This document shows positions 1,959 through 56,552 of a DNA stretch of 64,000 nt, in pieces; within the stretch, counting starts at the first letter, position 1, and each line of letters begins with the position of its first letter. The notes beneath the pieces were generated by a model. That model ran no database searches. It was not told where the DNA came from and saw only the letters and a list, made by a program, of their open reading frames with translations. Position numbers and translations under genes: made by a program. Origin of the DNA: Clostridia bacterium. GTDB lineage: Bacteria > Bacillota > Clostridia > Christensenellales > Borkfalkiaceae. Location: NCBI GenBank assembly GCA_900768525.1, contig CAAGDF010000003.1:892-64891 (forward strand). The letters run 5' to 3'.

Positions 1959-1979
1959 GTCGATAATCGACCTATAGCC
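1959..1979 (+). repeat. Dispersed repeat, class A, forward: gtCGATAATCGACCTATAGCC
   Basis: Matches GCGATAATCGACYTATAGSC and is followed by ttaCTTTTT. It abuts the stop codon of the minus-strand gene ending at 1980. Confidence 0.85.
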
Positions 1980-2903
1980 TTACTTTTTAATGTTTTTTTG
2001 CTTAACGTATTTACCTTTTTTGCAGGTTACGTCGGTTACGTTGTCGGGCGTAGTGCCTAACAGCTCGTTCATCTCTTTTACGATTTTATCGCATTTCATG
2101 TTCGAGTAGTGGCAAATCACGTATTCAACGCTTTTAATGCCTTTTGCCCCGCGGCAAAACGCGCGCACGGGTGCTGCAAGGGCGAATACCCAAACGGGTG
2201 TGCATATGATAACTTTATCATATTTGTTCAAATCTTCGGGTATGCTTTCTAACGGCATATCCCATTTGTGCATATTGAACCGTCCGCACCACCAAAACCC
2301 GAGCGTCCCGTCGGTTTTTTCCGTTGTTTTAAGTTCAAAAATTTTACCGCCTGTCTTTTCGGCTTGCTCATACGCAAGTTTTTTTACGTACCCCATACGT
2401 GAAAAGTAGACTACAAGAACTTTGTCGTTCGTGCCGACCGCCGTGTAACTTTCTTCGTTTACTTTAAAACTTTCCTGCTTTTGAAAAACTATTGCCGCAT
2501 AACCCGTCAACGCCTGTAAAAGTCCGAAAACGAAATACGAGTTAGACATAAAATTGCTTTCAAAAATGAAGAATTGAATGGTTATCCACAGCATCAGCGT
2601 AACGCCGAATATGCAACCGAGTATCGCGCCTGCACGTTTTTTAAGTATCAGTAATACCGCTGCGATCAGGTTGGTAATGCCGTTGACTATAAGCAGCGAT
2701 ATGCCCGAAAAGACTAAATTTTGAAACAGCACGTCGGCAAATGGCAGTTTTCTGAGCCCCGGCAATAGCCCCGCCATGCCTGTGGCTTCGCCCGTCGGAT
2801 CGATAAGCATGGCGAGCGCGCCGCCGATCGCTCCGAGCCCGATGAATAAAGTCCAAAAAATTAGAATAATGCGCGCTACATTGTACCTGCTGTGCTTGCT
2901 CAT
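1980..2903 (-). CDS. Membrane protein with a C-terminal flavodoxin-like domain
   Basis: The N-terminal ~150 aa has 4-5 hydrophobic helices. The C-terminal part (VLVVYFSRMGY...VIICTPVW) looks like a flavodoxin fold. I chose the ATG at 2903 (MSKHSRY) because GGAGA lies 7 nt upstream; the ORF-track TTG at 2924 is less likely. Confidence 0.7.
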   Translation of the reverse strand: MSKHSRYNVARIILIFWTLFIGLGAIGGALAMLIDPTGEATGMAGLLPGLRKLPFADVLFQNLVFSGISLLIVNGITNLIAAVLLILKKRAGAILGCIFGVTLMLWITIQFFIFESNFMSNSYFVFGLLQALTGYAAIVFQKQESFKVNEESYTAVGTNDKVLVVYFSRMGYVKKLAYEQAEKTGGKIFELKTTEKTDGTLGFWWCGRFNMHKWDMPLESIPEDLNKYDKVIICTPVWVFALAAPVRAFCRGAKGIKSVEYVICHYSNMKCDKIVKEMNELLGTTPDNVTDVTCKKGKYVKQKNIKK

Positions 2904-2975
2904 AGTATCTCCTTGACCCGACAAAGCGGGAATGATTGCGTTATTATATTAGAACACGTGTTATATAACCGATGT

Positions 2976-3004
2976 ATTATATCAATACGCCATATGACTG
3001 TCAA
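2976..3004 (-). promoter_or_regulatory. Consensus sigma-A promoter P1 (TTGACA-17-TATAAT) for the flavodoxin-membrane gene
   Basis: Minus strand: TTGACA is plus 2999-3004, the spacer is 17 nt, and TATAAT is plus 2976-2981. Confidence 0.8.
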
Positions 3005-3099
3005 GCAAAAACGGTGATTTTTATTAAAAAAATAAAATATTCCCGTTAAAAAATAAAAAATTAAAAACGCAGTATTATGTGCTTGCCTATAGTATATTA

Positions 3100-3128
3100 A
3101 ATCGTCCGACTTTAAAGGGCGGACGATT
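3100..3128 (-). other. 9-bp perfect hairpin between the two tandem promoters
   Basis: aatcgtccg (3100-3108) / cggacgatt (3120-3128) with an 11-nt loop. It lies about 35 nt downstream of the P2 start site on the minus strand. Confidence 0.5.
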
Positions 3129-3165
3129 GCGCTACGAAATATAATACTTGTTATATAATAGCTGC

Positions 3166-3194
3166 ATTATATAAATGCGATATATAGCTGTCAA
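3166..3194 (-). promoter_or_regulatory. Second consensus sigma-A promoter P2 (TTGACA-17-TATAAT), a duplicated copy of the P1 module
   Basis: Minus strand: TTGACA is plus 3189-3194, the spacer is 17 nt, and TATAAT is plus 3166-3171. The surrounding ~85 bp aligns with the P1 region. Confidence 0.7.
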
Positions 3195-3384
3195 ACAAAA
3201 AAAGCAAAATATTATTAAAATTCAAAATATTTTTTATAAAAAAAGAGGAAAACGAGAAAAATCAAAGTATTATTATATGTGAAGAAAATCGGGCGTTTTA
3301 ACGTTTTGCGTTAAAAAACGAACCGAAAAGCCGAAATATTATCTATAAAAGGCGAATTTAAAACGCGATAGGTTATTGTTACCA

Positions 3385-5250: not shown

Positions 5251-5473
5251 AATTCGTGCGCTATTAAAGCGCGATTTTTTGCGGGCAATCAATATATAAA
5301 ATATAAAGAATAAATCGCCGCCGATAAAACGAATACAGCGGCAATAAAATAAGAGAATTTCGTTTGTTTTGTGCTTTCGGCAGCCGTAGCTGTTGCTTTT
5401 GAATAGCCGTAAGGCTGTCGTTGTAGCGGTTGCTCGGGCAATATAAAGCAAGCGATAATCGATAAAACGGAGG

Positions 5474-6541: not shown

Positions 6542-6552
6542 TCAAAAAGTCC

Positions 6553-6573
6553 GCCTATAAGTCCGTTATCGGC
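6553..6573 (-). repeat. Dispersed repeat, class B variant, reverse: gcctataagtccgttatcggc (= GCCGATAACGGACTTATAGGC)
   Basis: Shares the GCCGATAACGG..YTATAGSC pattern with the copies at 41520 and 56532. It ends 8 nt before the trmK ATG. Confidence 0.75.
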
Positions 6574-6581
6574 ACTTTGAT

Positions 6582-7235: not shown

Positions 7236-7989
7236 AATTTTGTCGCTTATGGATGGAAAAGCACCGCTCAAATTATCGACGGGGGCTTGTTCAATGCTGG
7301 GTATGTATGATAACAGCGGGTTGATTTTAGAAGGCAGAGAGCTTGAAACCGACGGCGTAATATTTGCGCTCGACCTCAACAAGGCAGTGGTAGAACTTGC
7401 CAAAAAGTCGGGCTATAAGTTGATTATCACGCATCATCCCGCAATTTATCGCCCCGTAAAAAACGTTATGCAAGGCGTGTACACCGCGTGCATAGAAGCG
7501 GGTATAACCGTTTATTCGTCGCACTTAAGTTTGGATACCGCGGTCAACGGAATAGACGACGGCTTGGCTAAACTTTGCGGTGCGAAAGACTTTGAAATTC
7601 TTGAGCCGACCGTTGACGGAAGAGGTTTCGGCAGGGCGTTCGGCGTAGAAAAAGATACCTTTAACAATAAGGTAAAACAAATCACCGAAAAAATCGGAAC
7701 TACAAAATATCTGGCTTTCGGCGATCCCGATACGCAAATAAACGGTATTGCTACCTTCTGCGGGGCGGGGTTAGACGAGGCTGCGATTTACCGTGCGGGA
7801 AGCAGCGAAATGCTCGTTTCCGCCGATATACCGCACCATGTACTGCTTGCCGCGTTGGAGCAAGGCAAGTGCGTTTTGCAACTTACGCATTACGCAAGCG
7901 AGGCTGTCGCCATGCAAAATTTTGCCGATGCGATTTGCCGTGAAAATAAAATAAATTACCGTTTTTATCTCGACCGAAGATTTATGTAA
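7222..7989 (+). CDS. Nif3-like dinuclear metal-centre protein (YqfO family)
   Basis: LIITHHPAIYRP and HYASE motifs. It overlaps trmK by 14 nt, and the trmK-nif3 pairing is conserved. Confidence 0.85.
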   Translation: MKISEILSLMDGKAPLKLSTGACSMLGMYDNSGLILEGRELETDGVIFALDLNKAVVELAKKSGYKLIITHHPAIYRPVKNVMQGVYTACIEAGITVYSSHLSLDTAVNGIDDGLAKLCGAKDFEILEPTVDGRGFGRAFGVEKDTFNNKVKQITEKIGTTKYLAFGDPDTQINGIATFCGAGLDEAAIYRAGSSEMLVSADIPHHVLLAALEQGKCVLQLTHYASEAVAMQNFADAICRENKINYRFYLDRRFM

Positions 7990-8895: not shown

Positions 8896-8915
8896 CCGTT
8901 AATCGACCTATAGCC
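8896..8915 (+). repeat. Dispersed repeat, class A, forward: ccgTTAATCGACCTATAGCC
   Basis: It lies 19 nt after the stop codon. Its CCCGACTTT tail forms the 5' arm of the hairpin cccgacttt/aaagtcggg (8914-8937). Confidence 0.8.
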
Positions 8916-12537: not shown

Positions 12538-14205
12538 ATGGATGGTAATGTAATCGGCGGAAGGGATTTCGCCGAAATGCTTTCTTACGGTGCAAATAAT
12601 TTGGCTTTGCATCGCACGGAGGTTAACGATTTAAACGTGTTTCCCATTCCCGACGGCGACACGGGCGACAATATGCTTATGACTTTTACCTCGGGTATTC
12701 AGTCGATCGGCGCAAAAAACGATTTGCCGTCGGTTACTGAAGCCGTGGCGGAGGGTATGTTGCTCGGCGCTCGCGGCAATTCGGGCGTTATTCTCTCGCG
12801 TATTTTTGCGGGTATAATAAAAGAATTGTGCGCTTGCGAATATGCAACGCTTGACGATATAAAACGCGGAATGAAAAACGGCGTAAAAGAATCGTACTCA
12901 GCGGTTTCAAAACCCGTCGAAGGCACGATTTTAACCGTTTTCAAGGATGCGGTTAACTATGCCGAAAAGTGCGATAACGGTGCTATAGCCGCATATTTTA
13001 GCAGTATTACGAGAGAAATGGCGCGGTCGCTCGAGCGCACGCCCGACCTTCTTCCCGTGCTTAAAGAAGCGGGCGTAGTCGATAGCGGCGGCGCAGGCTT
13101 GCTGTTTATATTCGAGGGCATAGCGGAGTACGTCAACGGCGAAACGACCGATAATGCGTTTGACGAAATTGTAGCGACTTCGGCTGAACCGTCGGACGGC
13201 GAAACCATCGATTATTCGTTGTTTACCGCAGACAGCACTCTTGATTTCGGCTATTGCACGGAGTTTTTATTAAGACTGCAAAACGCCAAAACCGACGTGA
13301 AAAATTTCGACGTGGACGCTTTTATCAAAGTTCTCGAGAAAAACGGCGGCGACTCGGTCGTTGCCTTTAAAGAGGACAGCATTTTGAAAGTTCACGTTCA
13401 TACAAAAAACCCGGGCGACGTTTTCAATTTTGCGCAAAAGTTCGGCGAATTTTTGAAGGTAAAAATCGAGAACATGACTTTTCAGAATAACGAAGCCGTA
13501 AAACGCGGCAACAATGCGCAGACCGCGCTTCGCAAAAAGCGCAAAAAACATCAGGCGGTCGTAGTCGTGGCTGCGGGCGACGGTATAAAAGATGCGTTTT
13601 CGGAGTCGGGCGTAGATTATATCGTGGACGGCGGACAGAGCATGAACCCCTCGGCGCAGGATTTTATTACCGCATTTAACGAGGTCAACGCCGAACGAAT
13701 TATCGTTTTTCCCAATAACGCAAACGTAATTCTTACGGCAAACCAAGCCGCCGAATTATATAAAGAAAGCGAAATCGTGGTAGCGGAAAGCAAGACGGTC
13801 GGCGAATGTTATGCCGCATTATCCTTAGCCGACTTAAGCGGCGATACGGATACCGTAAAGCAGCAAATAGATTTGATTTCGGGCGAAAGCCTTACGGCGT
13901 ACGTTTCTACCGCAATCAGGGATACCGACGCAGGCGGTGTTGCCGTTCGTCGCGGAGATTACATAGGTTTTGCGCGCGGCGAAGTGCTTTGCGATTTTAA
14001 AAGCAGGAAAGAAGCCGCAATCGAACTTGTCGATCATCTGAACGCAAATATATACGGCTTGCTGATTATTTTTGTCGGCGCGGATGCGAACGAGCAGGAA
14101 GCCGAAGAAATTGCAAAAGCCATAACGGCAAAATACAAATATCTCGAAGTCGTGGTTCGTGACGGCGGTCAGCCGATTTATGACTATATGTTTGTTTTTG
14201 AATAA
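12538..14205 (+). CDS. fakA: DAK2-domain protein (YloV family), fatty-acid kinase subunit FakA
   Basis: N-terminal Dak2 motifs (VFPIPDGDTGDNM, GARGNSGVILS), a 555-aa YloV-type architecture, and a DegV gene immediately downstream. Confidence 0.85.
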   Translation: MDGNVIGGRDFAEMLSYGANNLALHRTEVNDLNVFPIPDGDTGDNMLMTFTSGIQSIGAKNDLPSVTEAVAEGMLLGARGNSGVILSRIFAGIIKELCACEYATLDDIKRGMKNGVKESYSAVSKPVEGTILTVFKDAVNYAEKCDNGAIAAYFSSITREMARSLERTPDLLPVLKEAGVVDSGGAGLLFIFEGIAEYVNGETTDNAFDEIVATSAEPSDGETIDYSLFTADSTLDFGYCTEFLLRLQNAKTDVKNFDVDAFIKVLEKNGGDSVVAFKEDSILKVHVHTKNPGDVFNFAQKFGEFLKVKIENMTFQNNEAVKRGNNAQTALRKKRKKHQAVVVVAAGDGIKDAFSESGVDYIVDGGQSMNPSAQDFITAFNEVNAERIIVFPNNANVILTANQAAELYKESEIVVAESKTVGECYAALSLADLSGDTDTVKQQIDLISGESLTAYVSTAIRDTDAGGVAVRRGDYIGFARGEVLCDFKSRKEAAIELVDHLNANIYGLLIIFVGADANEQEAEEIAKAITAKYKYLEVVVRDGGQPIYDYMFVFE

Positions 14206-20356: not shown

Positions 20357-20376
20357 GCGATAATCGACCTATAGGC
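20357..20376 (+). repeat. Dispersed repeat, class A, forward: GCGATAATCGACCTATAGGC
   Basis: Exact match to the consensus, flanked by caaaagtc on the 5' side and gtttttttt on the 3' side. It lies in the spacer between DUF2804 and the pyrR promoter. Confidence 0.9.
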
Positions 20377-25683: not shown

Positions 25684-26214
25684 ATGGGCGAGGGCGAATT
25701 GGCGTACAAGAGATATATCGATGGCGACGACTCGTCTTTTGAAGAGGTCGTCCGCATTTATCGTGCCGAAGTAACCGCTTACGCGCTCAGTATCGTCCGC
25801 AACAGGTTTGCCGCGGAGGACGTTGCCGCCGACGTTTTTTGTTACGTCGTGTGCCACAAGAAAAAGTATAATTTTTCCGTTCCGCTTAAATATTATTTGC
25901 TAATGATTTGCAAATCGCGCGCGCTCGATTATTATCGGCGGGAGAAGAAATATATACCGCTCGACGAGGCGATAAATGTCGAAAGCGAGCGCGACAACGT
26001 TGTCGAAATGATTGTTAAAGACGAACGCAAAAGTGCCGTTTATCGTGCTATAGGCGGACTTCCTGCCGAAATGCGCTCGGCTGTTTACCTCTTTTACTTT
26101 GAAGAAATGAGTTACGACGACGTTGCGAAAATAATGAAGATAAACAAAAAGAAAGTCGATAATTTGCTGTATGCGGCAAAACAAAAATTAAAAAAGGAGC
26201 TGTGCGATTTATGA
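25684..26214 (+). CDS. ECF-type (group 4) RNA polymerase sigma-70 family factor
   Basis: 176 aa with a region 2 (...AEDVAADVF...) and a region 4 HTH (VYLFYFEEMSYDDVAKIMKINKKKVDNLLYAAKQKL). Confidence 0.85.
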   Translation: MGEGELAYKRYIDGDDSSFEEVVRIYRAEVTAYALSIVRNRFAAEDVAADVFCYVVCHKKKYNFSVPLKYYLLMICKSRALDYYRREKKYIPLDEAINVESERDNVVEMIVKDERKSAVYRAIGGLPAEMRSAVYLFYFEEMSYDDVAKIMKINKKKVDNLLYAAKQKLKKELCDL

Positions 26215-26726
26215 AAAAGGACAAGATAACGCCAACGAATACGGATGCAAAAATTTTGTCCGACGGTGAATTTACCGCCGAAGTTTTTGCGCGCGCAAAA
26301 CGTAAGAAAGCTGCTTTTCGTAAAAAGGTCGCTGGTGCAATAGCGACCGTATGCGCGGCATGTTTTGTTTTTACGGGTATCGGTATAGGCATAAGTTCGG
26401 CGGCGGGCGGCAATAAAGCCGATGCTGCGCCGGGCAGGCGTGACGATAGTTTTATTTCGGGTTATAACGATTACGCCATAGTAGACGGAAATTACGTTTT
26501 CTTACCGCCCGAAGAGAGTAATCGTTTAAGGGCGATTATCGATGCGGCTTCAAAAAACGGCGAAAGTATAGTAGAGGACGGTGTAAACGACGACTATTGT
26601 TTTGCCGTTATGATCGACGGCGTTCGGTATATGTTTTTTAAAGACGGCGTGTCTTTTAAAAACACCGTCGTAAAAAGCAAAAACGTCGGCAATATCGCCA
26701 AAAGCGTATTAAAAGGCGGGCTATAA
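26211..26726 (+). CDS. Putative single-pass membrane anti-sigma factor
   Basis: ATGA start/stop overlap with the sigma gene, an AGGAG RBS, and one TM helix (VAGAIATVCAACFVFTGIGIGI). The call is by context only. Confidence 0.5.
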   Translation: MKKDKITPTNTDAKILSDGEFTAEVFARAKRKKAAFRKKVAGAIATVCAACFVFTGIGIGISSAAGGNKADAAPGRRDDSFISGYNDYAIVDGNYVFLPPEESNRLRAIIDAASKNGESIVEDGVNDDYCFAVMIDGVRYMFFKDGVSFKNTVVKSKNVGNIAKSVLKGGL

Positions 26727-26738
26727 GTCGATTATTGC
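26719..26738 (-). repeat. Dispersed repeat, class A, reverse: ggctataagtcgattattgc
   Basis: One mismatch to the consensus. The repeat's TAA supplies the stop codon of the 26211-26726 CDS. Confidence 0.85.
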
Positions 26739-26785: not shown

Positions 26786-26805
26786 CGCTATAAGTCAATT
26801 ATCGC
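26786..26805 (-). repeat. Dispersed repeat, class A, reverse: cgctataagtcaattatcgc
   Basis: Same orientation as the copy 67 nt upstream, with two mismatches to the consensus. Confidence 0.8.
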
Positions 26806-26872: not shown

Positions 26873-27139
26873 TTATGCGTTTGCAGTCTCTTTTTCGTAC
26901 GCCGCCATTACTGCGGAAATAAGTGCGTTACGCGCTTCTGCGTTGATGGGGTGAGCGATATCTCTGTATTCGCCGTCCTGAGTTTTGCGAGAGGGCATTG
27001 CAACGAAGCAACCGTCGGTTCCTTCAACGATTTTTATATCGTGAATAGCGATAGCGTCGTCTAAAGTTATCGAAGCAACCGCTTTAAGTTTACTGTCTTC
27101 TTTTTGTACCATCCTGATTCTTACGTCTGTAATGTTCAT
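26873..27139 (-). CDS. spoVG: Septation / RNA-binding protein SpoVG
   Basis: 88 aa: MNITDVRIRMV...KLKAVASITLDDAIAIHDIKIVEG...FVAMPSRKT.DGEYRDIAHPIN. Confidence 0.95.
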   Translation of the reverse strand: MNITDVRIRMVQKEDSKLKAVASITLDDAIAIHDIKIVEGTDGCFVAMPSRKTQDGEYRDIAHPINAEARNALISAVMAAYEKETANA

Positions 27140-31623: not shown

Positions 31624-31643
31624 GCGATAATCGACTTATAGGC
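31624..31643 (+). repeat. Dispersed repeat, class A, forward: GCGATAATCGACTTATAGGC
   Basis: Exact consensus, followed by gggCTTTTTaataaaaa. It is the first of a tandem pair. Confidence 0.9.
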
Positions 31644-31691: not shown

Positions 31692-31711
31692 GCGATAATC
31701 GACTTATAGGC
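31692..31711 (+). repeat. Dispersed repeat, class A, forward: GCGATAATCGACTTATAGGC
   Basis: Identical 20-mer 68 nt downstream of the first copy, followed by agaCTTTTaataaaaa. Confidence 0.9.
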
Positions 31712-34810: not shown

Positions 34811-34830
34811 GCCTATAAGTCGATTATCGC
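34811..34830 (-). repeat. Dispersed repeat, class A, reverse: gcctataagtcgattatcgc
   Basis: Exact reverse complement of GCGATAATCGACTTATAGGC. It ends 18 nt before the mfd ATG. Confidence 0.9.
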
Positions 34831-34848: not shown

Positions 34849-37800
34849 ATGGCAAAATCGATTATGTTGGATAAATATCTGCAAGCCGAAAATTTAGGCG
34901 AAAATTTCATAACTCTCAAAGAAAATGTCCGCAGTGGGGTTCCTACCGCGGTTTTTGGCGTACAATCAGCCGAAAAATATCATCTTGCGGCAATGCTCGA
35001 TTTGCCTGTTATTTACATCGCGCGTGACGGGCTTATTGCCAAAAACGCAGCCAAAGAACTGCGCGCTTTAAGCGGGAAAAACGGAGTATATCTTCCTGCC
35101 AAGGACGATGTTTTATTATATAACAAAGCGTTCAACAAGGACGCGTATTACGAACGCATTACCGCGCTGTATCGTTTAACTAAAGGGGTAGATTTCGTAA
35201 CTTGCACGTTTGAAGCTCTTTTGCAGTTAATGCCGGATAAAATCGAAGGTATAGAACTTAAAACGGGCGGAGAATATGATTTGACCGAACTGTGCGCCTG
35301 CCTTGTGCGTATGGGGTATACCCGCGTGGACGAGGTGGACGGTAAGGGGCGTTTTTCTCTTCGCGGTGATATTTTGCAGGTTTTTTCGGTGAACTATGAC
35401 GTTCCCGTCCGCATTGACTTTTTCGGCGACGAGATAGAAAAAATGGTCTATTTCGACGCGTCTGGCGCGGTCGGCGGCGAAACTAAAAAGATTACGATTT
35501 TGCCGACCGTTGATTTTGCTATCGATCCCGCCGAAAAAGCTACGATAAAACATGCCTTGAAAGAGGGTGTGCGCGCGTTCGGCACTCAAATTTACGCTGC
35601 GCGTGCGCGCGACATAGCAAGCGAACTTACCGAAACGTTGGATAACGACGTTTGCGATCCGTCGCTGTCGTTTGTCCTGCCGCTGCTTTCTTGCATGAAA
35701 GGCAGTATCCGCAAGTTTATGGGCGAGGATGCCGTAGTAGTTTACGACGAGTGCAAAATGCTTAGAGATTCGCTTGACGGCGCGCTTAAAGAATTTGCCG
35801 ACCGCCGTATTTCGCTTGCGGCAAACGGCGAAAGTTTCAACTTTTCCGCAGGACAATACAAAACGCCCGAGGCGTTGTTTAAGGAACTCGACCTTCCGCG
35901 CAAACTTGCGCTTCAAAGTTTAACCTCGCAAATCGCGTTTTTCAATCCGCTTAAAACAATGCGGTTCAACTGCACGCTCGTGCCGCGCTATGCGCTTAAG
36001 CCCGACGACTTTTTCGATGACGTAAAAAGTTGGAAAATCACGGGCTATAAAGTTCTGGTGTGCTGCGGCAACGGCGAGCGCGCCGCGCGTTTGCACGGTT
36101 ATCTTGAAGATAAGAAGATTTTTTCCGATTTAGGCGATAATTTTCCCGCCGATTTTTCCGGCGTTAAGATAACGAGTTTTTATCTTGCGAACGGCTTTAT
36201 TTACCACGACGCAAAACTTGCGGTAATCGGCACTAACGATTTATACTCGCGCAAGGAAACGCAAAAGAAGATCAAGCGCAAGAGCGGCGACGTATACTAC
36301 GCGCCCGAGGTAGGCGATTACTGTGTGCATGAAAAACACGGCATCGGTATCGTACGCGGTGTGGAACGCATAACCACTACCGACAGCACCAAAGATTACG
36401 TTGCCATTGAGTACCGCGGCGGCGATATGCTTTACGTCGGCGTGGACAGAATGGACTGCCTTACAAAATACATGGGCGGAGAGGAAAAACCCTCGCTTTC
36501 CAAACTCGGAGGACAGGAGTTTGAAAAGATCAAGGAACGCGTAAAAGCGTCTATCGCCAAACTTACCATAAACTTAAAACAGCTGTACCGCAACCGCAGG
36601 GAAGCCAAAGGTTTTGCGTTTTTGCCCGACGACGGCATGATGCGCGAGTTCGAGGAAGCGTTCCCGTTTGAAGAAACCGAAGATCAGCTGACCTCTATCG
36701 AAGAGATTAAAAAAGATATGGAAAGCACGCGCGTTATGGACAGGCTGCTTTGCGGCGACGTCGGCTACGGAAAGACGGAAGTCGCTTTGCGTGCGGCGTT
36801 CAAGGCGATAGAGTCGGGCAAGCAGGTCGCTTTTATCGCGCCTACCACCATTCTTGTCGAGCAGCATTATATGAACGCGCTCGAGCGGTTCAAGGATTTT
36901 GCGGTGAGAATCGCCGTACTTGACAGGTTCAGAACGACCTCAGAACAGTCCAAAACGTTGTTCGACCTCGAAGACGGTAAGATAGACATGGTAATCGGCA
37001 CGCACAGGCTGTTTTCAAAGGACGTAAAATTCAAAGATTTAGGATTGCTTATTCTCGACGAGGAGCAGCGGTTCGGCGTGGAGCATAAAGAAAAACTCAA
37101 ACTGCTCAAAGAAAACGTGGATACGCTCACGCTGTCGGCAACGCCTATTCCGAGAACGCTGCATATGTCGCTTACGGGTATACGCGATATAAGCATAATC
37201 AACACACCGCCCACGCAGCGCATACCGGTGCAAATTTTCGTAACCGAAGAAACCGACGCACTTATTCATGATGCAATTTCAAAAGAGCTGGCGCGCGGCG
37301 GTCAGGCATTCATTTTGTACAACAGCGTCGAGAGCATTTCGGCTTTTGCGGCGCGCGTGCGCGAACTCATACCCGAAGCGCGGGTAGTTATCGGGCACGG
37401 GCAAATGCAGGAACGGCAGCTTGAAGAAAACGTAATGGCGTTCTACCGCGGTGAGTACGATGTACTCGTTGCGACGACCATAATCGAAAACGGAATAGAT
37501 TTGCCCAATGCGAACACGCTCATTGTAATCGACGCCGACAAACTCGGACTTTCCACGTTGTATCAGTTAAAAGGCAGGGTGGGCAGAAGCGATCGTATGG
37601 CGCGCGCGTATTTTACTTATAAAGAAAATAAGGTCATAACCGATATCGCGTTCAAGCGATTGTCTGCGCTCACCGAATTTTCTGAGTTCGGCAGCGGTTT
37701 TAAAATCGCCATGCGCGACCTTGAAATTCGAGGCGCGGGCAACGTGCTCGGCAAAGAACAGCACGGGCATATGGAAAAAATCGGTTACGAACTGTATACG

Positions 37801-39252: not shown

Positions 39253-40434
39253 ATGGCATATAATTTTGATTTGACTATCGATAGAAAAAACACGGGTTCT
39301 TTGAAGTGGGATATCGGCGAAAACGAAATTCCGCTATGGGTGGCGGATATGGATTTTGATACCGCCCCCGCGATTAAAAATGCGATTTTGCGCCGCGCAG
39401 AGCAGGGCGTGTTCGGTTATAATGTTGTAACCGACGAATGGTACAACGCGATTTGCGGTTGGTGGTCGCGCCGTCACGGTATAAACATCCCCAAGGACGA
39501 ACTCGTATTTTGCACGGGTGTTGTGCCGGCAATATCGTCCGCGGTAAGACGGCTTACCGCTCCTAACGAAAAAGTTATTATTCAGACGCCCGTGTACAAC
39601 ATATTTTTCAACTCGGTTTTAAACAACGGCAGGCGCGTCGTCGAAGCCCCTCTTTTATACGAAAAAGGGAGCTATAGGTTGAATATCGACGATTTGGAGG
39701 AAAAATTTGCCGATAAAGAAACCACGCTTATGATACTTTGCAACCCGCATAACCCGGTCGGAAAAATATGGACGAAAGAAGAACTCGCTTTAATAGGCGA
39801 GCTTAGCGAAAAGTATTCGGTAACGGTGATTTCCGATGAAATTCACTGCGATATTACAACGCCCGGTAAAAAATATGTGCCTTACGCTTCCGTATCCGAG
39901 GCTTGTGCGCAAAACAGCGTTACATGCATATCGGCAACCAAAGCGTTCAATATCGCGGGGCTTCAGTGCGCCGCGGTGTACTCGTTCAATAAAAAACTTT
40001 TGGCAAGGGTGAACCGCGCGCTTAACACCGACGAGGTTGCCGAACCCAACTCTTTTGCTATGTGCGCAACCGTCGCCGCGTTTGACGAATGCGAGGACTG
40101 GCTTGACGAAATGTGCGCCTATACGTCCGAAAACAAGGCTTTCGTTGCGAATTTTATTGCAAAAAACATACCGCAACTCAAGTTCGTTTCCTCCGACGCG
40201 ACTTACCTTTGCTGGGTAGATTGCGGTGCGTTTATCGGCGGTAAGCCTTTTGAAAACGCTGCCGAGTTATGCAAAGAATTAAGAAAAACGACGGGCGTTA
40301 TTTTATCAGAGGGCGGGCAGTTCGGGCTCGGCGGCGATAAATTCGTCCGCATAAACGTTGCCTGTCCGAAAGAATTGCTGACTTGTGCGCTTGAAAGAAT
40401 AAAATCGTTTTTCGATAAAGTCATATTGTTTTAA
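39253..40434 (+). CDS. MalY/PatB-type PLP-dependent C-S lyase (class I/II aminotransferase fold)
   Basis: FDLTIDRKNTGSLKWD N-terminus, SDEIH, and the SATKAFNIAG lysine motif. Confidence 0.85.
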   Translation: MAYNFDLTIDRKNTGSLKWDIGENEIPLWVADMDFDTAPAIKNAILRRAEQGVFGYNVVTDEWYNAICGWWSRRHGINIPKDELVFCTGVVPAISSAVRRLTAPNEKVIIQTPVYNIFFNSVLNNGRRVVEAPLLYEKGSYRLNIDDLEEKFADKETTLMILCNPHNPVGKIWTKEELALIGELSEKYSVTVISDEIHCDITTPGKKYVPYASVSEACAQNSVTCISATKAFNIAGLQCAAVYSFNKKLLARVNRALNTDEVAEPNSFAMCATVAAFDECEDWLDEMCAYTSENKAFVANFIAKNIPQLKFVSSDATYLCWVDCGAFIGGKPFENAAELCKELRKTTGVILSEGGQFGLGGDKFVRINVACPKELLTCALERIKSFFDKVILF

Positions 40435-40504: not shown

Positions 40505-40711
40505 ATGAAACTAAGCGGAATTTTATCGTATATACTTGTTGCGCTCGGCGCGCTTTTATGGCTGATTTTCGGTCTTTTAAATATTAACGTTATAGGCGAA
40601 ATATTCGGCTATAGGTCGATTATCGCACGTTATATATACGTCGGAATAGGTATCGGCGGCATGTTTTTTATATATGTTTCTTTAGCTTTTCACCCGCTTA
40701 AAGGTTTATAA
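40505..40711 (+). CDS. DUF378-family small membrane protein
   Basis: 68 aa with two TM helices. The pattern ...GALLWLIFGLLNINVIGEIFG...ARYIYVGIGIGG fits DUF378. Confidence 0.75.
   Translation: MKLSGILSYILVALGALLWLIFGLLNINVIGEIFGYRSIIARYIYVGIGIGGMFFIYVSLAFHPLKGL
40607..40626 (-). repeat. Dispersed repeat, class A, reverse, inside the DUF378 CDS: ggctataggtcgattatcgc
   Basis: 20/20 match to the reverse complement of GCGATAATCGACCTATAGCC. It is read in frame as G-Y-R-S-I-I-A. Confidence 0.85.
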
Positions 40712-41519: not shown

Positions 41520-42676
<1,157 letters not shown>

Positions 42677-43320: not shown

Positions 43321-43342
43321 GCCGATAATCGACCTATACGCC
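43321..43342 (+). repeat. Dispersed repeat, class A, forward: GCCGATAATCGACCTATACGCC
   Basis: It lies 13 nt after the yajC stop. This is a slightly diverged copy (TATACG in place of TATAGS). Confidence 0.8.
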
Positions 43343-48013: not shown

Positions 48014-48033
48014 GGCAATAGGTCGATTATCGC
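48014..48033 (-). repeat. Dispersed repeat, class A, reverse: ggcaataggtcgattatcgc
   Basis: It lies 36 nt after the glgD stop, preceded by caaaagtcg and followed by gtattttt. One mismatch to the consensus. Confidence 0.85.
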
Positions 48034-48118: not shown

Positions 48119-49828
48119 ATGGCAAATAAGAAAAACGTTACCGAAGAAATAAAGCAGGTCGAAAAAGCGACCGCAAAATCAAAAAAGGTTACCAAAGCCG
48201 CAGAAGAAAAGACGGCTGAAAAGGTTGCCGTAAAAACCGCAAATGAAAAAGTTGCTAAAACGGAAACCAAGGTGGCGAAAACCGCAAAGACACGCTCGGC
48301 AAAGTCGGCAAAAGTAACGTCCGTTCATCCCGAACTCGTTCCGCCGATGAAAGCCCCCGTAAAAGAAGCCGAAGAAGTTAAAGTTGTTGCCGTCGAAAAG
48401 AAAAAGAGCGTATTGTTTGTTGCGTCCGAAGGTTTGCCGTTTGTTAAAACGGGCGGTCTTGCCGACGTAATCGGCTCGCTCCCCAAGGCGATTGCGGCAA
48501 AGGGCGAATACGACGTCCGCGTTATTATGCCGCTGTATTCCGGTATCGACGCAGGCATGCGCAACAATTTTGCATTCATAACCAACTTTAACGTAGGTCT
48601 TGCATGGCGTAATCAGTATTGCGGATTATTCTCCTGCAGGCTTGACGGCGTTACTTTCTATTTTATAGATAACGAATATTATTTCTCGCGCGATAGTATT
48701 TACGGAGCATACGACGACGGCGAAAGATTTGCATTCTTCTCCAAAGCGGTGCTCGATACGCTCGGCGTGCTCGATTACTATCCCGACGTTATCGACTGCA
48801 ACGACTGGCAAAGCGCGGCTACCGTCATTTACTTAAAAACGCTTTACGCCGATAAATTCGGATTTTCCGAAATTAAAACGGTATTCACCATACACAATAT
48901 AGAATATCAGGGCAAGTTCGGAATGGAAACGGCTGCAGATCTCTTCGGTTTCCCCGAATCGGCTTACGGTGCGATCGAATTCGACGGTTGTCTTAACCTT
49001 ATGAAAGGTGCGATTCAGCTTGCCGATAAAGTGGTTACCGTCAGCCCCACCTATGCGCGCGAACTGCAAGATCCTTATTTTGCAGCAGGACTTGAGAACA
49101 TAATCAAAGCCAACGAATATAAGATCTGCGGAATACTCAACGGGCTCGACCTCGAACTTTACGATCCCGCAACCGATAAAGCGTTGTTCGCCAACTATTC
49201 GGCAAACGCCCTCGACGGTAAAAAGACATGTAAGCGCGAACTGCAAAAAATGTTAGGGCTTCCCGAACGCGACGACGTACCCGTCATAGCCGTTATCAGC
49301 AGACTGGTATCGCATAAAGGTCTTGACCTTATTAAGTGTATTCTCGACGAATTGCTTTACGAAGACGTGCAGTTTGTTGTGCTCGGCAAAGGCGACGTAG
49401 ATTACGAAAATTATTTCAGATATATGGAAGGGCGTTACGGCTGCAAATGCCGCGCGCTTATCGCGTTTAACAGAGATATGGCGTCCAAAATATATTCGGG
49501 TGCGGATATATTGCTTATGCCGTCAAGACAAGAACCCTGCGGATTGTCGCAAATGATAGCCTGCCGTTACGGTACGATACCCGTAGTAAGGCGCACGGGC
49601 GGTCTTGCCGACAGCATTAAAGCGTACAACGAGGACAGGACGGAGGGCAACGGTTTTGCGTTCACCAACTACAACGCGCACGAAATGCTTTACGTTATAA
49701 AGGACGCGATATTCACGTTCGCCAAGAAAGATGAATGGAACAAAATTGTCAAATATGCAATAAACAGCGATTTCGGCTGGGAAAAATCATCCGAAAAGTA
49801 TACTGAATTGTTCGATTCCTTAAACTAA
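48119..49828 (+). CDS. glgA: Glycogen synthase (GT5) with a ~95-aa Lys/Ala-rich N-terminal extension
   Basis: The core starts at KKSVLFVASEGLPFVKTGGLADV (nt ~48401), and the C-terminal motif PSRQEPCGLSQM is present. The open frame extends upstream to the ATG at 48119 or the TTG at 48113, with a GGAG RBS. Confidence 0.9.
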   Translation: MANKKNVTEEIKQVEKATAKSKKVTKAAEEKTAEKVAVKTANEKVAKTETKVAKTAKTRSAKSAKVTSVHPELVPPMKAPVKEAEEVKVVAVEKKKSVLFVASEGLPFVKTGGLADVIGSLPKAIAAKGEYDVRVIMPLYSGIDAGMRNNFAFITNFNVGLAWRNQYCGLFSCRLDGVTFYFIDNEYYFSRDSIYGAYDDGERFAFFSKAVLDTLGVLDYYPDVIDCNDWQSAATVIYLKTLYADKFGFSEIKTVFTIHNIEYQGKFGMETAADLFGFPESAYGAIEFDGCLNLMKGAIQLADKVVTVSPTYARELQDPYFAAGLENIIKANEYKICGILNGLDLELYDPATDKALFANYSANALDGKKTCKRELQKMLGLPERDDVPVIAVISRLVSHKGLDLIKCILDELLYEDVQFVVLGKGDVDYENYFRYMEGRYGCKCRALIAFNRDMASKIYSGADILLMPSRQEPCGLSQMIACRYGTIPVVRRTGGLADSIKAYNEDRTEGNGFAFTNYNAHEMLYVIKDAIFTFAKKDEWNKIVKYAINSDFGWEKSSEKYTELFDSLN

Positions 49829-52356: not shown

Positions 52357-54150
52357 ATGTATATTATCTTTGACCCGACGAACGAAAAATACAAAAACAT
52401 AAAGGGCGGTGTGGCTGAAAACAGCACCGTCCGATTTTTCGTTGAGTCGGATGCCGATAAAGTAATAATGGAGTTTTATGGCGATAATCGACCTATAGCC
52501 CGACTTTTCACTAAAAGCGACGGCGGTTTTACGCTTGAAACTTCGTTTGAAAAGGGTTTGTATTTTTATAAACTCAAAGCGGAATTAAACGGTGAGGAGC
52601 ATATTTTCGGCGCAAGCGAAAAACTTAATGCCGTCGGGAACGGCGCTCCGTGGCAACTCACGGTTTACCACGCCGACTATTGTACGCCCGAGTGGATCAA
52701 GGGCGGTATAATATATCAGATATTTCCCGACAGGTTTTGCCGCGACGGTTCGCTTACCGTGTCCGCGGGTAAGATTGCGCGCTACGATTGGGGCGGAACG
52801 CCCACCTTTCGTTCAAGCGACGGTATAGTCAGAAACAACGAGTTTTTCGGCGGTAATTTCAAAGGCATAAAAAAGAAACTTGATTATTTAAAATCGCTCG
52901 GCGTTACGGCGGTTTATCTTAACCCGATATGCGAAAGTTACTCGTCGCACCGCTACGATACGGGCGATTATATGGCGATTGACCGCGTTTTGGGCAGCGA
53001 AAGCGATTTTGCCGATATGGTCGGCGAGGCTAACAAGCAGGGTATTCGTTTTATATTCGACGGCGTGTTCAATCATGTCGGCGCGGACAGCAAATATTTC
53101 AATAAATACGGGAATTACGACAGTGTCGGCGCATATCAGTCGCCAAATTCGCCTTACTATGACTGGTTTACGTTTCGCAATTTCCCCGACGATTACGAGA
53201 GTTGGTGGGATTTTAAAAACTTACCGTCTATTAAAAAAACTTGTGAAGATTTTCAGTCGTTTATAAGCGGCGACGGCGGAGTTTTGCAGCATTGGTTAAA
53301 CCTCGGTTTTAACGGCGTTCGACTTGACGTTGCCGACGAACTTACCGACGAATTTATATTTAAAATTCGAGGCAAGTTAAAGCGCGAAAGTGCCGATAAT
53401 CTACTTATAGGCGAGGTTTGGGAGGATGCGACCAACAAAATCGCATACGGAATACGCCGTAAATATTTCACCGACGGCGAACTCGATTCGGTGATGAATT
53501 ACCCGCTTAAAGATGCTATCTGCGATTATTTGTTAAGCGGAAAAACCGACTATCTCGAACAGGTGATTTGCGAGCAGATAAACAACTATCCTAAGCCCGC
53601 GCTCGACTGCCTTATGAACGTGCTTTCGACTCATGATTCTATAAGGGCGATTACTCTTTTCGGCAGAAAAACTCCCGTATACAACAAGGACGAAATGGCG
53701 GGTGAAAAGCTCACTGCCGAAGAATACAACCGCGGTAAGGCGAAACTCAAATGCGCTTCCGTATTGCAATTTTTTTTATACGGAGTGCCCGCCGTCTATT
53801 ATGGCGACGAAGAAGGGCTCGAGGGTGATCTCGATCCGTATAACAGGCGTTGTTTCGATTGGAACGATATCGATGAGGACTTGCTTTCGCACTATCGCAA
53901 AATATCGAAAATTCGTCTTGATAACAAAGAAATTCTCGCATATGGGCAAACGAACATAGAAACCGCGTTCGACGGCTTGTTCGTGTTCGGGCGAGAGTCT
54001 ACAAAAGGTAAACTCATTATTGCCGTAAACGCAGGCAATAACGAATATAAATTAAAAACCGACCGCAAAGCCGAAGATTTATACGGCGGATCGGTCGGAT
54101 ATGAAACACTTATACCCCCGCTCGGTTTCGTTGTGCTTAAAGCAGTATAA
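52357..54150 (+). CDS. GH13 alpha-amylase-family hydrolase (neopullulanase / alpha-glycosidase-like)
   Basis: An N-terminal beta-sandwich domain followed by GH13 regions: YQIFPDRF, DGVFNHVG, GVRLDVADE, IGEVWED, STHDS. The start is uncertain (ATG at 52357, no clear RBS). Confidence 0.85.
   Translation: MYIIFDPTNEKYKNIKGGVAENSTVRFFVESDADKVIMEFYGDNRPIARLFTKSDGGFTLETSFEKGLYFYKLKAELNGEEHIFGASEKLNAVGNGAPWQLTVYHADYCTPEWIKGGIIYQIFPDRFCRDGSLTVSAGKIARYDWGGTPTFRSSDGIVRNNEFFGGNFKGIKKKLDYLKSLGVTAVYLNPICESYSSHRYDTGDYMAIDRVLGSESDFADMVGEANKQGIRFIFDGVFNHVGADSKYFNKYGNYDSVGAYQSPNSPYYDWFTFRNFPDDYESWWDFKNLPSIKKTCEDFQSFISGDGGVLQHWLNLGFNGVRLDVADELTDEFIFKIRGKLKRESADNLLIGEVWEDATNKIAYGIRRKYFTDGELDSVMNYPLKDAICDYLLSGKTDYLEQVICEQINNYPKPALDCLMNVLSTHDSIRAITLFGRKTPVYNKDEMAGEKLTAEEYNRGKAKLKCASVLQFFLYGVPAVYYGDEEGLEGDLDPYNRRCFDWNDIDEDLLSHYRKISKIRLDNKEILAYGQTNIETAFDGLFVFGRESTKGKLIIAVNAGNNEYKLKTDRKAEDLYGGSVGYETLIPPLGFVVLKAV
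52481..52500 (+). repeat. Dispersed repeat, class A, forward, inside the GH13 CDS: GCGATAATCGACCTATAGCC
   Basis: 20/20 match, followed by CGACTTTT as at 8896. It is read in frame as G-D-N-R-P-I-A-R-L-F. Confidence 0.85.
53392..53412 (+). repeat. Near-copy of the class A repeat inside the GH13 catalytic region: GCCGATAATCtACTTATAGGC
   Basis: It differs from GCGATAATCGACTTATAGGC by one substitution plus one extra C. It encodes A-D-N-L-L-I-G of the conserved LLIGEVW motif, so it may be a coincidence of coding sequence. Confidence 0.45.
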
Positions 54151-54234
54151 ACCGCCGATCTTCCGGTGCGTAAAGCACGCAAAAGCATACGAATCCTTAC
54201 ACATTAACACAACATTTTGAGGAAGGAAAAAACA

Positions 54235-56406
54235 ATGGACATTTTACAGACAATTACGCAGGAATTTTCGCTTAAACCCGAGCATGTAAACAATATAGTC
54301 GCGTTGCTCGACGACGGTAACACTATACCGTTCATCGCCCGTTACCGTAAAGAGCTTACGGGGCATATCGACGATCAGGTTCTGCGTGAATTATCGGACA
54401 GATTGACCTATCTTCGCAATCTCGAAGAAAGAAAGGGCGAGGTAGAGCGCAGCATAACCGAACAGGGCAAGATGACCGACGAAATCAAGCAGGCACTCGA
54501 AGCCGCGGTAACGCTCACCGAGGTAGAGGATATTTACCGTCCGTACAAGCAGAAGAAAAAGACGCGCGCCACGATTGCGGCGGCAAAAGGACTTACTCCG
54601 CTTGCCGATATCATGCTTGCTCAGGAAATCAAAGAGGGCAGCGCGGAAGACATCGCGAAAGAATATATCAATGAAGAACTCGGCGTAAAAACCGCCAAAG
54701 AAGCGCTTGCGGGGGCTATGGATATAGTTGCCGAAGGAGTTTCGGACGACGCCGAACTGCGTAAAAAACTGCGTAATATCTTTATGCGCAACGGCGAAAT
54801 ATCCTCAAAACTCGTCAAAACCGACGACGAAGGCGCAAAAGTTTACGAAAACTACGCAGATTATTCCGAGCCCGTCGCCGATATCAAGAACCACAGAATT
54901 CTTGCCATCAACCGCGGCGAAAAAGAAGGTTATCTGCGCGTAAAACTGGGCATTGATAAAGCGTTCGGCGGCAGGGTGTGTATGGCTGCGTTCGTAAAAG
55001 AGGGCAGTATTTTCACGCCTTATGTAGAGGCGGCTTGCGCCGACGCATACGAAAGGCTTATCGCTCCGTCCATCGAGCGCGAAGTAAGAAACATGCTTAC
55101 CGACGCGGCAAACGAACAGGCGATCAAGATGTTCGAGGTCAATTTGAGACCGCTCCTTATGCAACCGCCCATTCGCGATAAAGTTACGCTCGGCTGGGAT
55201 CCCGCATACAGAACGGGTTGTAAACTCGCCGTCGTGGACGAAACGGGCAAGGTGCTCGATAAAACGGTCATTTATCCTACCATGCCGCAAAACAAGGTGG
55301 AAGAGGGCAAAGCGGTCGTAAGAAAACTCATCGCCAAATACGGCGTTCAGGTAATTTCTATCGGTAACGGCACGGCTTCTAAGGAAAGCGAAATCATCGT
55401 ATCCGATCTCGTGCGCGAATATAACGGCAAGGTTGCGTATATGGTGGTCAGCGAAGCGGGAGCTTCGGTTTACTCGGCTTCAAAACTCGGCGCGGAAGAG
55501 TTCCCCGATTACGACGTATCCGAACGTTCGGCGGTATCTATCGCAAGGCGTTTGCAGGATCCGCTTGCCGAACTTATCAAAATAGATCCCAAGTCGATCG
55601 GCGTTGGTCAGTATCAGCACGATATGCCCGAAAGCAGGCTCGACAGCGTGCTTAAAGGCGTTATGGAAGACTGCGTAAACAAAGTAGGCGCGGATCTTAA
55701 TACGGCAAGCGTATCGCTCCTTTCTTATATTTCGGGGCTTAACGCTTCGGTTGCAAAAAACATAGTCGCCTATCGCGAAGAGCACGGCAAGTTCAAATCG
55801 AGAAAAGAATTGCTCAAAGTTTCAAAACTCGGGGAAAAGGCGTTCACGCAGTGCGCGGGATTTATGCGTATCCCGGGCGCGAAGAATATTCTCGATAACA
55901 CCGGCGTACACCCTGAGTCTTACGATGGCACCGAAAAACTTCTTTCTCTGTTCGGTTATACCGATAAAGACGTCGAAAGCGGAAACCTCGGCGAACTGAA
56001 AGACAAAATCAAAGCGTATGGTACGAAACGCGTTTGCGAGGAAACCGGGCTGGGCGCGGAAACTCTGAACGATATCGTAACAGAACTTTTAAAACCCGGA
56101 CGCGACGTGCGCGACAGCCTGCCCAAGCCCATGCTGCGTGCCGACCTTATGGATATTAACGACCTCGTTCCCGGTATGAAAATAAAAGGCACGGTAAGAA
56201 ACGTTACCGACTTCGGCGCGTTCATCGATATCGGCGTTCATCAGGACGGACTTGTTCACGTATCCGAAATATCCGACAGGTTTGTTCGTCACCCCAGCGA
56301 AGTGCTTAAAGTAGGCGACGTTGTGGACGCAACGGTTATCTCTGTAGACGTTCGCAAAAAACGTATCGGATTAAGTCTTAAAAGTAAACCCGTAATCAAT
56401 AAATAA
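54235..56406 (+). CDS. tex: Tex-like transcription accessory protein with a C-terminal S1 domain
   Basis: N-terminal IPFIARYRKE, a YqgF-like and HhH middle region, and a C-terminal S1 domain (GTVRNVTDFGAFIDIGVHQDGLVHVSE). ATG at 54235 with a GAGGAAGGA RBS. Confidence 0.93.
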   Translation: MDILQTITQEFSLKPEHVNNIVALLDDGNTIPFIARYRKELTGHIDDQVLRELSDRLTYLRNLEERKGEVERSITEQGKMTDEIKQALEAAVTLTEVEDIYRPYKQKKKTRATIAAAKGLTPLADIMLAQEIKEGSAEDIAKEYINEELGVKTAKEALAGAMDIVAEGVSDDAELRKKLRNIFMRNGEISSKLVKTDDEGAKVYENYADYSEPVADIKNHRILAINRGEKEGYLRVKLGIDKAFGGRVCMAAFVKEGSIFTPYVEAACADAYERLIAPSIEREVRNMLTDAANEQAIKMFEVNLRPLLMQPPIRDKVTLGWDPAYRTGCKLAVVDETGKVLDKTVIYPTMPQNKVEEGKAVVRKLIAKYGVQVISIGNGTASKESEIIVSDLVREYNGKVAYMVVSEAGASVYSASKLGAEEFPDYDVSERSAVSIARRLQDPLAELIKIDPKSIGVGQYQHDMPESRLDSVLKGVMEDCVNKVGADLNTASVSLLSYISGLNASVAKNIVAYREEHGKFKSRKELLKVSKLGEKAFTQCAGFMRIPGAKNILDNTGVHPESYDGTEKLLSLFGYTDKDVESGNLGELKDKIKAYGTKRVCEETGLGAETLNDIVTELLKPGRDVRDSLPKPMLRADLMDINDLVPGMKIKGTVRNVTDFGAFIDIGVHQDGLVHVSEISDRFVRHPSEVLKVGDVVDATVISVDVRKKRIGLSLKSKPVINK

Positions 56407-56419
56407 TTGCAAAATAAGC

Positions 56420-56439
56420 GGCTATAAGTCGATTATCAA
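56420..56439 (-). repeat. Dispersed repeat, class A, reverse: ggctataagtcgattatcaa
   Basis: It lies 14 nt after the tex stop. It forms an inverted pair with the class B copy at 56532 around the terminator. Confidence 0.8.
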
Positions 56440-56470
56440 GCATTTTTCAAATCTTTTAGATAAAATACAA

Positions 56471-56502
56471 AGCGGATTGCACTAAAAACAGTGCAGTCCG
56501 CT
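56471..56502. terminator. Bidirectional intrinsic terminator (tex / rtcB convergent)
   Basis: 13-bp stem agcggattgcact (56471-56483) / agtgcagtccgct (56490-56502), flanked by A and T runs. Confidence 0.85.
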
Positions 56503-56531
56503 TTTAAAATTGATTTTTTAGGGATATAACA

Positions 56532-56552
56532 GCCGATAACGGTCTTATAGCC
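56532..56552 (+). repeat. Dispersed repeat, class B variant, forward: GCCGATAACGGTCTTATAGCC
   Basis: It is followed by gcgTTTTTTg and lies 12 nt beyond the rtcB stop codon. Confidence 0.75.

Follow-up and report, generated by a model that had tools for sequence, protein, structure and literature searches.

Several kinds of short sequence words are dispersed through bacterial genomes. The DNA uptake signal sequences (USS) of Pasteurellaceae and the DNA uptake sequences (DUS) of Neisseriaceae have a core of 9-12 bp and a density of about 1 per 1 kb. Repetitive extragenic palindromic sequences and bacterial interspersed mosaic elements (REP/BIME, including REPIN) of enterobacteria and pseudomonads are about 35 bp long and are present in hundreds of copies at 3' gene ends and in convergent spacers, in both orientations. 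Cyanobacterial HIP1 (GCGATCGC) is an 8-bp perfect palindrome frequent in genes, and the sites of chromosome-structuring proteins (NBS of Noc, SBS of SlmA, matS of MatP and parS of ParB) are true palindromes present in tens of copies. Described here is a word of about 36 bp that is dispersed along a stretch of 64,000 nucleotides (the window, meaning the whole stretch analysed) from a Clostridia bacterium of the Christensenellales (assembly GCA_900768525.1, contig CAAGDF010000003.1, positions 892 to 64,891), and in related genomes. In its behaviour this word is closest to USS/DUS and in its position closest to REP/BIME, and structurally it is unlike both.

The word resembled HIP1 in being clade-wide, hugely over-represented, present in coding and non-coding DNA and kept without transposition, but differed from it in being a 36-bp asymmetric pseudo-dyad with a bias for intergenic DNA and 3' gene ends and with phased flanks. 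With the sites of Noc, SlmA, MatP and ParB it shared a dyad-like, scattered and orientation-independent presence on double-stranded DNA and a tolerance within genes, but these sites, besides being fewer and truly palindromic, have no 3'-end bias and no reported long phased flanks.

The window was searched on both strands with the 20-mer GCGATAATCGACYTATAGSC, allowing up to 3 mismatches and with 100 shuffles as control. This class A form was found 17 times (0.02 expected; 0/100 shuffles reached 17), with 9 copies on the + strand and 8 on the - strand, and 6 of the 17 copies were exact. The excess was also present among divergent copies, both with 4 mismatches (4 copies, 0.2 expected) and with 5 mismatches (3 copies, 1.1 expected). 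A class B form, sCGATAACGGTGCTATAGCC, was found at 12971, 41521 and 56533, with a relative at 26036, and class A plus about 5 divergent or class B copies amounted to about 22 copies of the word per 64 kb. A profile search (nhmmer) of the window returned about 22-23 copies, or one per 2.6-2.9 kb. An earlier reading made from the letters alone (the sequence-only reading) had listed 14 class A copies, regarded them as far beyond chance with several exact, and noted no strand bias; all 14 were found again by the mismatch search, and the excess, the exact copies and the even split between strands were confirmed. Twelve of its coordinates were right and two were each off by one (1959, corrected to 1960, and 43321, corrected to 43322), and its census had overlooked copies at 6553 (-), 7411 (-) and 53393 (+). 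GC skew was positive along the entire window, which with the even strand split indicates that the word has no replication polarity. The dispersed word is genuine and not an artefact, and is a well-defined, family-wide genomic signal.

A collection of species-representative genomes searched with the 16-mer GATAATCGACYTATAG gave more than 113 matching stretches. Among the matches listed, nearly all were in metagenome-assembled genomes (MAGs) obtained from the guts of humans, ruminants and other hosts and carrying the label Christensenellaceae, Christensenella, Clostridia or Clostridiales, and a dozen were in unrelated taxa, all without the flanking signature and therefore regarded as chance matches. 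Grouped by assembly, the word was present in at least 48 species of Christensenellaceae/Christensenellales with GC contents of 33-49%, and hence was not confined to the window. It was also present, at about 1 per 7 kb, in four loci fetched via Tex homologues (73-84% amino acid identity) and not via the motif. Class B was dominant in CALVUR and GTTAAT variants were found in relatives, and in one genome of 35% GC class B outnumbered class A despite the class A-based selection of loci. In IMG/VR the 16-mer was matched only 12 times, each time singly, no more often than by chance and never with the flanks, and BLAST of a 40-mer against plasmids and phages returned nothing real. In the literature searched, neither the sequence of the word nor Christensenella uptake sequences, comEC or pili were found. 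By Rfam, the literature searched and the mobile-element-bearing collections, the word has not been previously described, and it is a new signal for Christensenellaceae.

Some MAG contigs that carried the word with its flanks bore labels of other taxa. Those labelled "uncultured Acidiphilium sp." (L004, L005, L013, L015, L016, L022, L040, L064, L096 and L100) had 36-46% GC, and two from a "Parasutterella excrementihominis" bin (L037 and L107) were orthologous to the prs-pth-mfd region of the window at about 70% identity. The Acidiphilium- and Parasutterella-labelled bins are likely mislabelled or contaminated.

The anatomy of the word was obtained from 176 instances across many genomes, a set collected with the class A core. 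The conserved word extended from -6 to +28 as AAAA nn G sCGATAATCGACYTATAGsC ssrC TTTT, and the full word of about 36 bp, with both classes included, was AAAA-nnG-sCGATAA-(TCGAC/CGGKS)-YTATAGsC-ssrC-TTTT. The frequency of A was 0.79-0.86 at -5/-4 and that of T was 0.83-0.98 at +25 to +28, in agreement with the A-run upstream and the T-run downstream recorded in the sequence-only reading. The 17-bp core was a pseudo-dyad, CGATAA-N5-TTATAG, in which CGATAA faced CTATAR (the complement of YTATAG), and its asymmetry of G3 vs A17 was nearly invariant. It had earlier been described as having no usable internal palindrome, which was correct in that the core did not fold, but not in that it is a pseudo-dyad. 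The middle of the core was TCGACY in class A and CGGGCT, CGGTGC or CGGACT in class B, and the GATAA-N6-TATAG spacing was constant in 176 of 191 cases. The summed information of the word was about 40 bits, the flanks being outside the search pattern, and by our own estimate several hundred sites (about 900) in a few-Mb genome would need about 12 bits; the difference therefore points to strong constraint or to a copying or drive process.

The A4 tract and the T4 tract each lay about 15.5 bp from the core centre, one on its left and one on its right. Around the word, A+T swung between about 0.85 and about 0.55, the fitted period being about 11-11.6 bp (R² 0.58-0.66), and this phasing extended at least about 60-70 bp on each side of the core. 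The peaks of A+T, at about -50, -37, -26.5, -15 and -4.5 on the left and at +26.5, +35.5, +46.5, +58.5 and +67 on the right, mirrored each other about position 10-11, which is the core centre. The oscillation was also seen around the 40 coding copies. Its amplitude was 0.085-0.096 at the word vs 0.02-0.04 at control SSRCTTTT sites in the same loci (2-4x). Independently of the word, an A/T periodicity of about 11 bp with an amplitude of 0.02-0.04 was present genome-wide in Christensenellales loci; this background is a signature of DNA curvature or supercoiling that these genomes show in general.

Placement was determined for 171 instances with our own gene calls, made by coding potential. Copies in genes were sense in 18 cases and antisense in 22, and those in co-directional spacers were sense in 40 cases and antisense in 36; convergent spacers contained 24 copies and divergent spacers 4 of the 104 intergenic ones, and the remaining instances overlapped a gene end in part or were at a locus edge. 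Genic copies (40/171, about 23%) were found only in frames that the word leaves open. In the window, 7 of 22 copies were genic (7411, 12971, 26036, 39670, 40607, 52481 and 53393) and 15 of 22 were in the non-coding 12% of the sequence, an enrichment of about 16-fold. The concentration in intergenic spacers that had been proposed is real, but a quarter to a third of the copies are genic. In co-directional spacers the median distance was 22 nt to the stop vs 84 nt to the next start, with 59 copies nearer the stop and 15 nearer the start. Distances to the stop codon ranged from -7 to about 20 nt without a single peak that would denote a fixed register, and distances to the next start codon were broadly scattered.

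Comparisons between species indicated how copies arise. The copy within NIF3 encodes the GYKLIIT of a conserved ..LIITHHP segment and aligned gaplessly to homologues in the PDB, and the copy within FakA/YloV was in a variable stretch that had no 12-residue insertion. In mfd, an exact 20-mer was present in two other species where the window has AAAATCACGGGCTATA and then sequence that has diverged, and this alignment too was gapless. These gapless coding alignments show that the coding copies are not insertions and arose by point substitution. One coding copy was identical in two species with just 65% nucleotide identity around it, and in a pair of species with 78% identity the word was retained in two adjacent operon spacers, where its forms were degenerate and had 1-nt indels; orthologous spacers contained degenerate copies and not empty sites. 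The amylase-tex spacer contained the word in 4/4 Tex-selected relatives, with 2 copies in each orientation, and the window species had a copy after tex, where the relatives had none. The spacer upstream of upp contained the word in L014 and in L102 in opposite orientations. Overall, copies are gained by substitution, persist for a long time and turn over, and their orientation is immaterial.

The word is best read, from its sequence features, as a signal on double-stranded DNA that is recognised by a predicted clade-specific protein, and neither as an RNA nor as a mobile element. The proposal of the sequence-only reading that the word is a binding site for an abundant DNA- or RNA-binding protein agrees, for a DNA site, with the family-wide presence, both orientations, the coding copies made by substitution and the phased flanks, and is disfavoured for an RNA site; its proposal of a tag like those of DNA uptake is compatible with the same evidence.

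As to function, a site of architectural or topological punctuation at the ends of transcription units is tentatively preferred, as plausible rather than probable. This role is favoured because the long phasing is symmetric, because convergent spacers are over-represented and because the site is retained in either orientation. A dimeric or two-domain protein would dock base-specifically on the pseudo-dyad core, and the DNA would be bent or wrapped around it over about 100-120 bp. Hundreds of such sites would be kept per genome (extrapolated from about 1 per 3-7 kb), placed where they do the least harm, which is after stops, between convergent genes and occasionally in open coding frames, and new sites would be made by point substitution. 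The role would parallel that of REP/BIME with gyrase and IHF in enterobacteria, minus the structure and the mobility of REP. The succession of A tract, 8 bp, AATCGA, N4 and TAG in the word echoes the A tract, 8 bp, WATCAR, N4 and TTR of IHF sites (7/9 consensus bases).

Several points weigh against an architectural site. Binding, bending and a topological effect are deduced from sequence statistics, part of the phasing of about 11 bp is a genome-wide property, as the control sites showed, and class A-based ascertainment inflates the information content of the core. Known sites of gyrase and of nucleoid proteins are far more degenerate than the word, and hundreds of near-perfect sites of 17-20 bp would be costly under selection alone and more easily obtained by uptake bias or gene conversion. 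In addition, the window species had no copy in the amylase-tex spacer, and therefore no single site is indispensable.

Possible, yet rather unlikely on the same comparisons, is a role in DNA uptake analogous to that of USS and DUS. A receptor of the competence machinery would favour DNA bearing the word, and this bias together with recombination would accumulate copies by point substitution across the core genome. As with USS/DUS, a short word was in vast excess with orientations about equal (9:8 in the window; 40:36 and 18:22 elsewhere), was enriched behind genes and sometimes within terminators, and was present in coding frames by substitution (about 23% of copies, in open frames only and in tolerant or compatible protein segments). 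It was also conserved family-wide with variants resembling dialects (class A, class B and GTTAAT) and was missing from the viral contigs, phages and plasmids searched. Flanks with A/T tracts are likewise a feature of Haemophilus and other Pasteurellaceae USS, and in Haemophilus they are also helically phased. Of the bioinformatic hallmarks of USS/DUS, the excess in both orientations, the coding copies in permissive frames and the family-wide dialects were all present, and molecular drive would account most economically for the excess information and for the coding copies. On the other hand, the host belongs to the Bacillota, among which we know of no case of uptake specificity, and competence in Christensenellaceae is undocumented in the literature searched. 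USS/DUS are non-dyadic and their A/T flanks are one-sided and cover about 2 helical turns, whereas the word has a pseudo-dyadic core of 17-20 bp and symmetric flanks of 5 or more turns on both sides. The word was less dense than USS/DUS (about 1 per 3-7 kb), its copies in terminators appear not to be inverted pairs of the word, full inverted pairs being 90-130 bp apart, and the retention of flipped copies in one spacer looks rather as if a site were needed there.

Less likely again, and improbable, is a selfish repeat like REP or a miniature inverted-repeat transposable element (MITE), spread by a domesticated REP-associated tyrosine transposase (RAYT) or HUH transposase or by a recombinase, or else through ectopic gene conversion between copies, and tolerated at the ends of genes. 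With REP/BIME the word shared its length, high copy number, both orientations and mostly extragenic placement at 3' ends and in convergent spacers, and, as predicted for the word, a plausible binding by protein with a topological role. Tandem pairs (67-68 bp) and inverted pairs, the flips of orientation within one spacer and, in about 10% of copies elsewhere, a hairpin with loop CCGATAATCGAC and stem CTATAAG/CTTATAG would also agree with such a repeat, as would imperfect inverted arms of 13-15 bp around a centre of 5-7 bp, which in our own reading resemble recombinase core sites. The word differed from REP in that it had no stable palindrome or stem-loop and no GTAG/CTAC box, folded no better than shuffles and had arm complementarity at chance. 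Copies in genes, about a quarter of the total, were made by substitution and without indels, and no target-site duplication was found. REP sequences are usually species-specific, whereas one 16-mer was conserved across many species of 33-49% GC, and the positions of copies were stable between species about 70-80% identical. No transposase, recombinase or RAYT was found among all the open reading frames (ORFs) of the 64 kb scanned, as had been noted earlier for the surroundings of the copies. A MITE or other mobile DNA was rejected on the lack of coding indels, of target-site duplications, of a transposase in the window and of copies in the phages and plasmids searched, and the remnant of a tiny mobile element that had been considered in the sequence-only reading is disfavoured on the same grounds.

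A transcription signal, either a bidirectional terminator acting as a protein roadblock or a promoter/operator, is very improbable. The position of the word right after stops, the flanking A and T tracts, the enrichment in convergent spacers, a density of roughly one per operon and the presence of some copies within true hairpin terminators would suit such a signal. About 10% of the copies elsewhere had, on their upstream side, an arm complementary to YTATAGSCggg and, after it, a T tract; the arm corresponded to no more than the word's 3' third, and these copies look like terminators built around its existing GC-rich-plus-T-tract end and not like its basic form. In the copy at 43322, CCGATAA, its 5' half, is paired with a TTATCGG that lies downstream and precedes T6, and this copy is built into a terminator. 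Hairpin terminators often adjoined the word (for example at 1887-1943 and 56469-56504), but canonical hairpin-plus-T terminators were equally frequent in spacers of matched length with and without it. A substitute for an intrinsic terminator was rejected, as most copies lacked a hairpin, orientation was random and the frequency of terminators was unchanged. Copies were also found inside genes and in tiny spacers within operons (rpoD-trmK, 40 nt). The promoters of the clade were ordinary TTGACA-17-TATAAT, some of them near the word, and a sigma-70 promoter or operator was rejected on these, on the random orientation, on the near-emptiness of divergent spacers (4/104) and on the scattered distance to starts.

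Resemblances to other described sites were also considered and set aside. A T7-type promoter (TAATACGACTCACTATAGG vs GATAATCGAC-YTATAGG) did not agree, with a spacing 3 bp too short, random orientation and no phage-type RNA polymerase, and for likenesses to the Fur box, dif and hix/res the spacing did not fit. An RNA motif, or the signal at the level of the untranslated region that had been suggested earlier, is disfavoured by equal sense and antisense copies, by consensus folding on either strand no better than shuffles (z +0.4 to -1.3), by mutual information that was not long-range and reflected only the AA/TT runs of neighbouring bases, by complementarity across the core equal to the shuffled expectation in three registers, and by the lack of any match in Rfam 15 overlapping a copy, at the gathering threshold or with E up to 5.

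The copies of the word in the window are collected in the table.

Table. Copies of the word in the 64-kb window, with one adjoining terminator (positions in nt of the window; an exact match or number of mismatches refers to the class A 20-mer).
Position	Strand	Form	Match	Context
1887-1943		bidirectional hairpin terminator		beside copy 1960
1960..1979	+	class A	1 mismatch	between convergent genes; abuts stop of - strand gene 1980-2903
6553..6572	-	class B-like middle (GATAACGGAC)		fills 40-nt rpoD-trmK spacer; stop 12 nt before, ATG 10 nt after
7411..7430	-	class A	2 mismatches	inside NIF3/DUF34 gene; encodes GYKLIIT(HHP); no indel vs PDB homologues
8896..8915	+	class A, GTTAAT variant		19 nt past stop; 3' flank GCCCGACTTT pairs with downstream complement
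12971..12990	+	class B (GCGATAACGGTGCTATAGCC), typical flanks		inside fakA/yloV, variable protein segment; no 12-aa insertion
20357..20376	+	class A	exact	intergenic; 94 nt beyond stop of - strand gene 20470-21501
26036..26055	+	divergent class B-like (CCGTTTATCGTGCTATAGGC)		inside ECF sigma-factor gene 25684-26214
26719..26738	-	class A		overlaps stop of gene 26211-26726; first of tandem pair, 67 bp spacing
26786..26805	-	class A	2 mismatches	second of tandem pair; adjoins hairpin terminator shared with spoVG (26873-27139, -)
31624..31643	+	class A	exact	10 nt past stop at 31614; first of tandem pair, 68 bp spacing
31692..31711	+	class A	exact	second of tandem pair; rlmH start (31743) 32 nt downstream
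34811..34830	-	class A	exact	19 nt ahead of mfd start; antisense to mfd
36034..36050	-	half-word remnant (TTATAGCCCGTGATTTT)		within mfd, at the site of the full exact copy in L037 and L076
38313..38332	+	class A	2 mismatches	12 nt past mfd stop
39670..39689	-	degenerate	4 mismatches	inside aminotransferase gene 39253-40434
40607..40626	-	class A	exact	inside 68-aa DUF378 gene; encodes GYRSIIA
41521..41540	+	class B		intergenic; tgt start 21 nt downstream
43322..43341	+	class A	2 mismatches	14 nt past yajC-like stop
48014..48033	-	class A	1 mismatch	36 nt past glgD stop; kept in strains L001 and L002
52481..52500	+	class A	exact	5' part of GH13 amylase ORF, open frame (GDNRPIA)
53393..53412	+	class A	2 mismatches	amylase catalytic domain; encodes ADNLLIG(EVW), ahead of catalytic EVW
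56420..56439	-	class A		14 nt past tex stop; inverted pair with 56533 around bidirectional terminator 56469-56504
56533..56552	+	class B		11 nt beyond rtcB stop (rtcB on - strand)

Pairs of copies were frequent, both in the window (31624/31692, 26719/26786 and 56420/56533) and elsewhere (L128, 14276/14369; L129, 14280/14360; L091, 1470/1545). The spacing was 67-75 bp in direct pairs and 80-115 bp in inverted pairs, some of which bracketed a bidirectional terminator, and an inverted pair upstream of ftsK was common to L128 and L129. Spacers of 40-43 nt inside operons (6542-6581 in the window; 6879-6920 in L019) consisted of the word almost throughout, and no Shine-Dalgarno sequence was recognisable in them before the downstream start (trmK). 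Directly upstream of copy 1960 was a gene for a small DNA-binding protein of the Trp-repressor family (PF01371; 1611-1871, +), an observation of adjacency only.

The window, in which all ORFs were scanned, was ordinary housekeeping chromosome. Its genes included dnaG-rpoD, trmK, NIF3, ruvX, rplS, fakA, plsX-acpP, an extracytoplasmic function (ECF) sigma factor and spoVG; a murC-like gene, rlmH, prs, pth, mfd, tgt, yajC and glgBCDAP; and a GH13 amylase, tex, rtcB, the signal recognition particle (SRP) RNA and ileS. A protein 99% identical to the Tex of the window is assigned by NCBI to a MAG of Candidatus Borkfalkiaceae or Christensenellaceae. Just upstream of ileS, a match resembling a T-box leader at 58364-58682 (+) had 41 bits (E 9.5e-6), under the Rfam gathering score of 93; a sigma-70-like promoter was present at 58314-58342, and a 126-aa ORF at 58281-58661 had no Pfam match and is probably spurious. 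The bacterial large SRP RNA was at 57942-58205 (-), with 166 bits and 82% identity in locus L065. GlgA (48119-49828, +) was extended N-terminally by about 97 aa ahead of its Glyco_transf_5 domain, and the called glgA product ranged from 518 to 669 aa in relatives (L128-L131).

For work on these genomes, the word is a compact taxonomic marker, and it flagged the apparently misplaced contigs in the Acidiphilium and Parasutterella bins. Spurious repeats or breaks in assemblies can start from it, and searches for motifs or regulons in the clade should mask it or model it. Among gut bacteria, Christensenellaceae rank with the most heritable and the most health-associated, and they are barely tractable genetically. 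The word may be, although this is doubtful on present comparisons, either the first uptake signal outside Proteobacteria, in gut Christensenellaceae that would be naturally transformable and would tell their own DNA by a 17-20-bp pseudo-dyad word with phased A/T flanks and genus dialects, or, at the ends of hundreds of genes, a strong topoisomerase site or the mark of a dedicated wrapping complex addressed by sequence, a kind of "bacterial positioned nucleosome". In the case of an uptake signal, natural transformation with self-recognition would exist in a Gram-positive lineage, and adding the word to incoming DNA would offer a handle for genetic tools. If it is architectural, it would be a rare sequence-addressed DNA-wrapping site of about 120 bp at gene ends, and a functional parallel of REP/BIME that evolved independently and was made by substitution and not by transposition.

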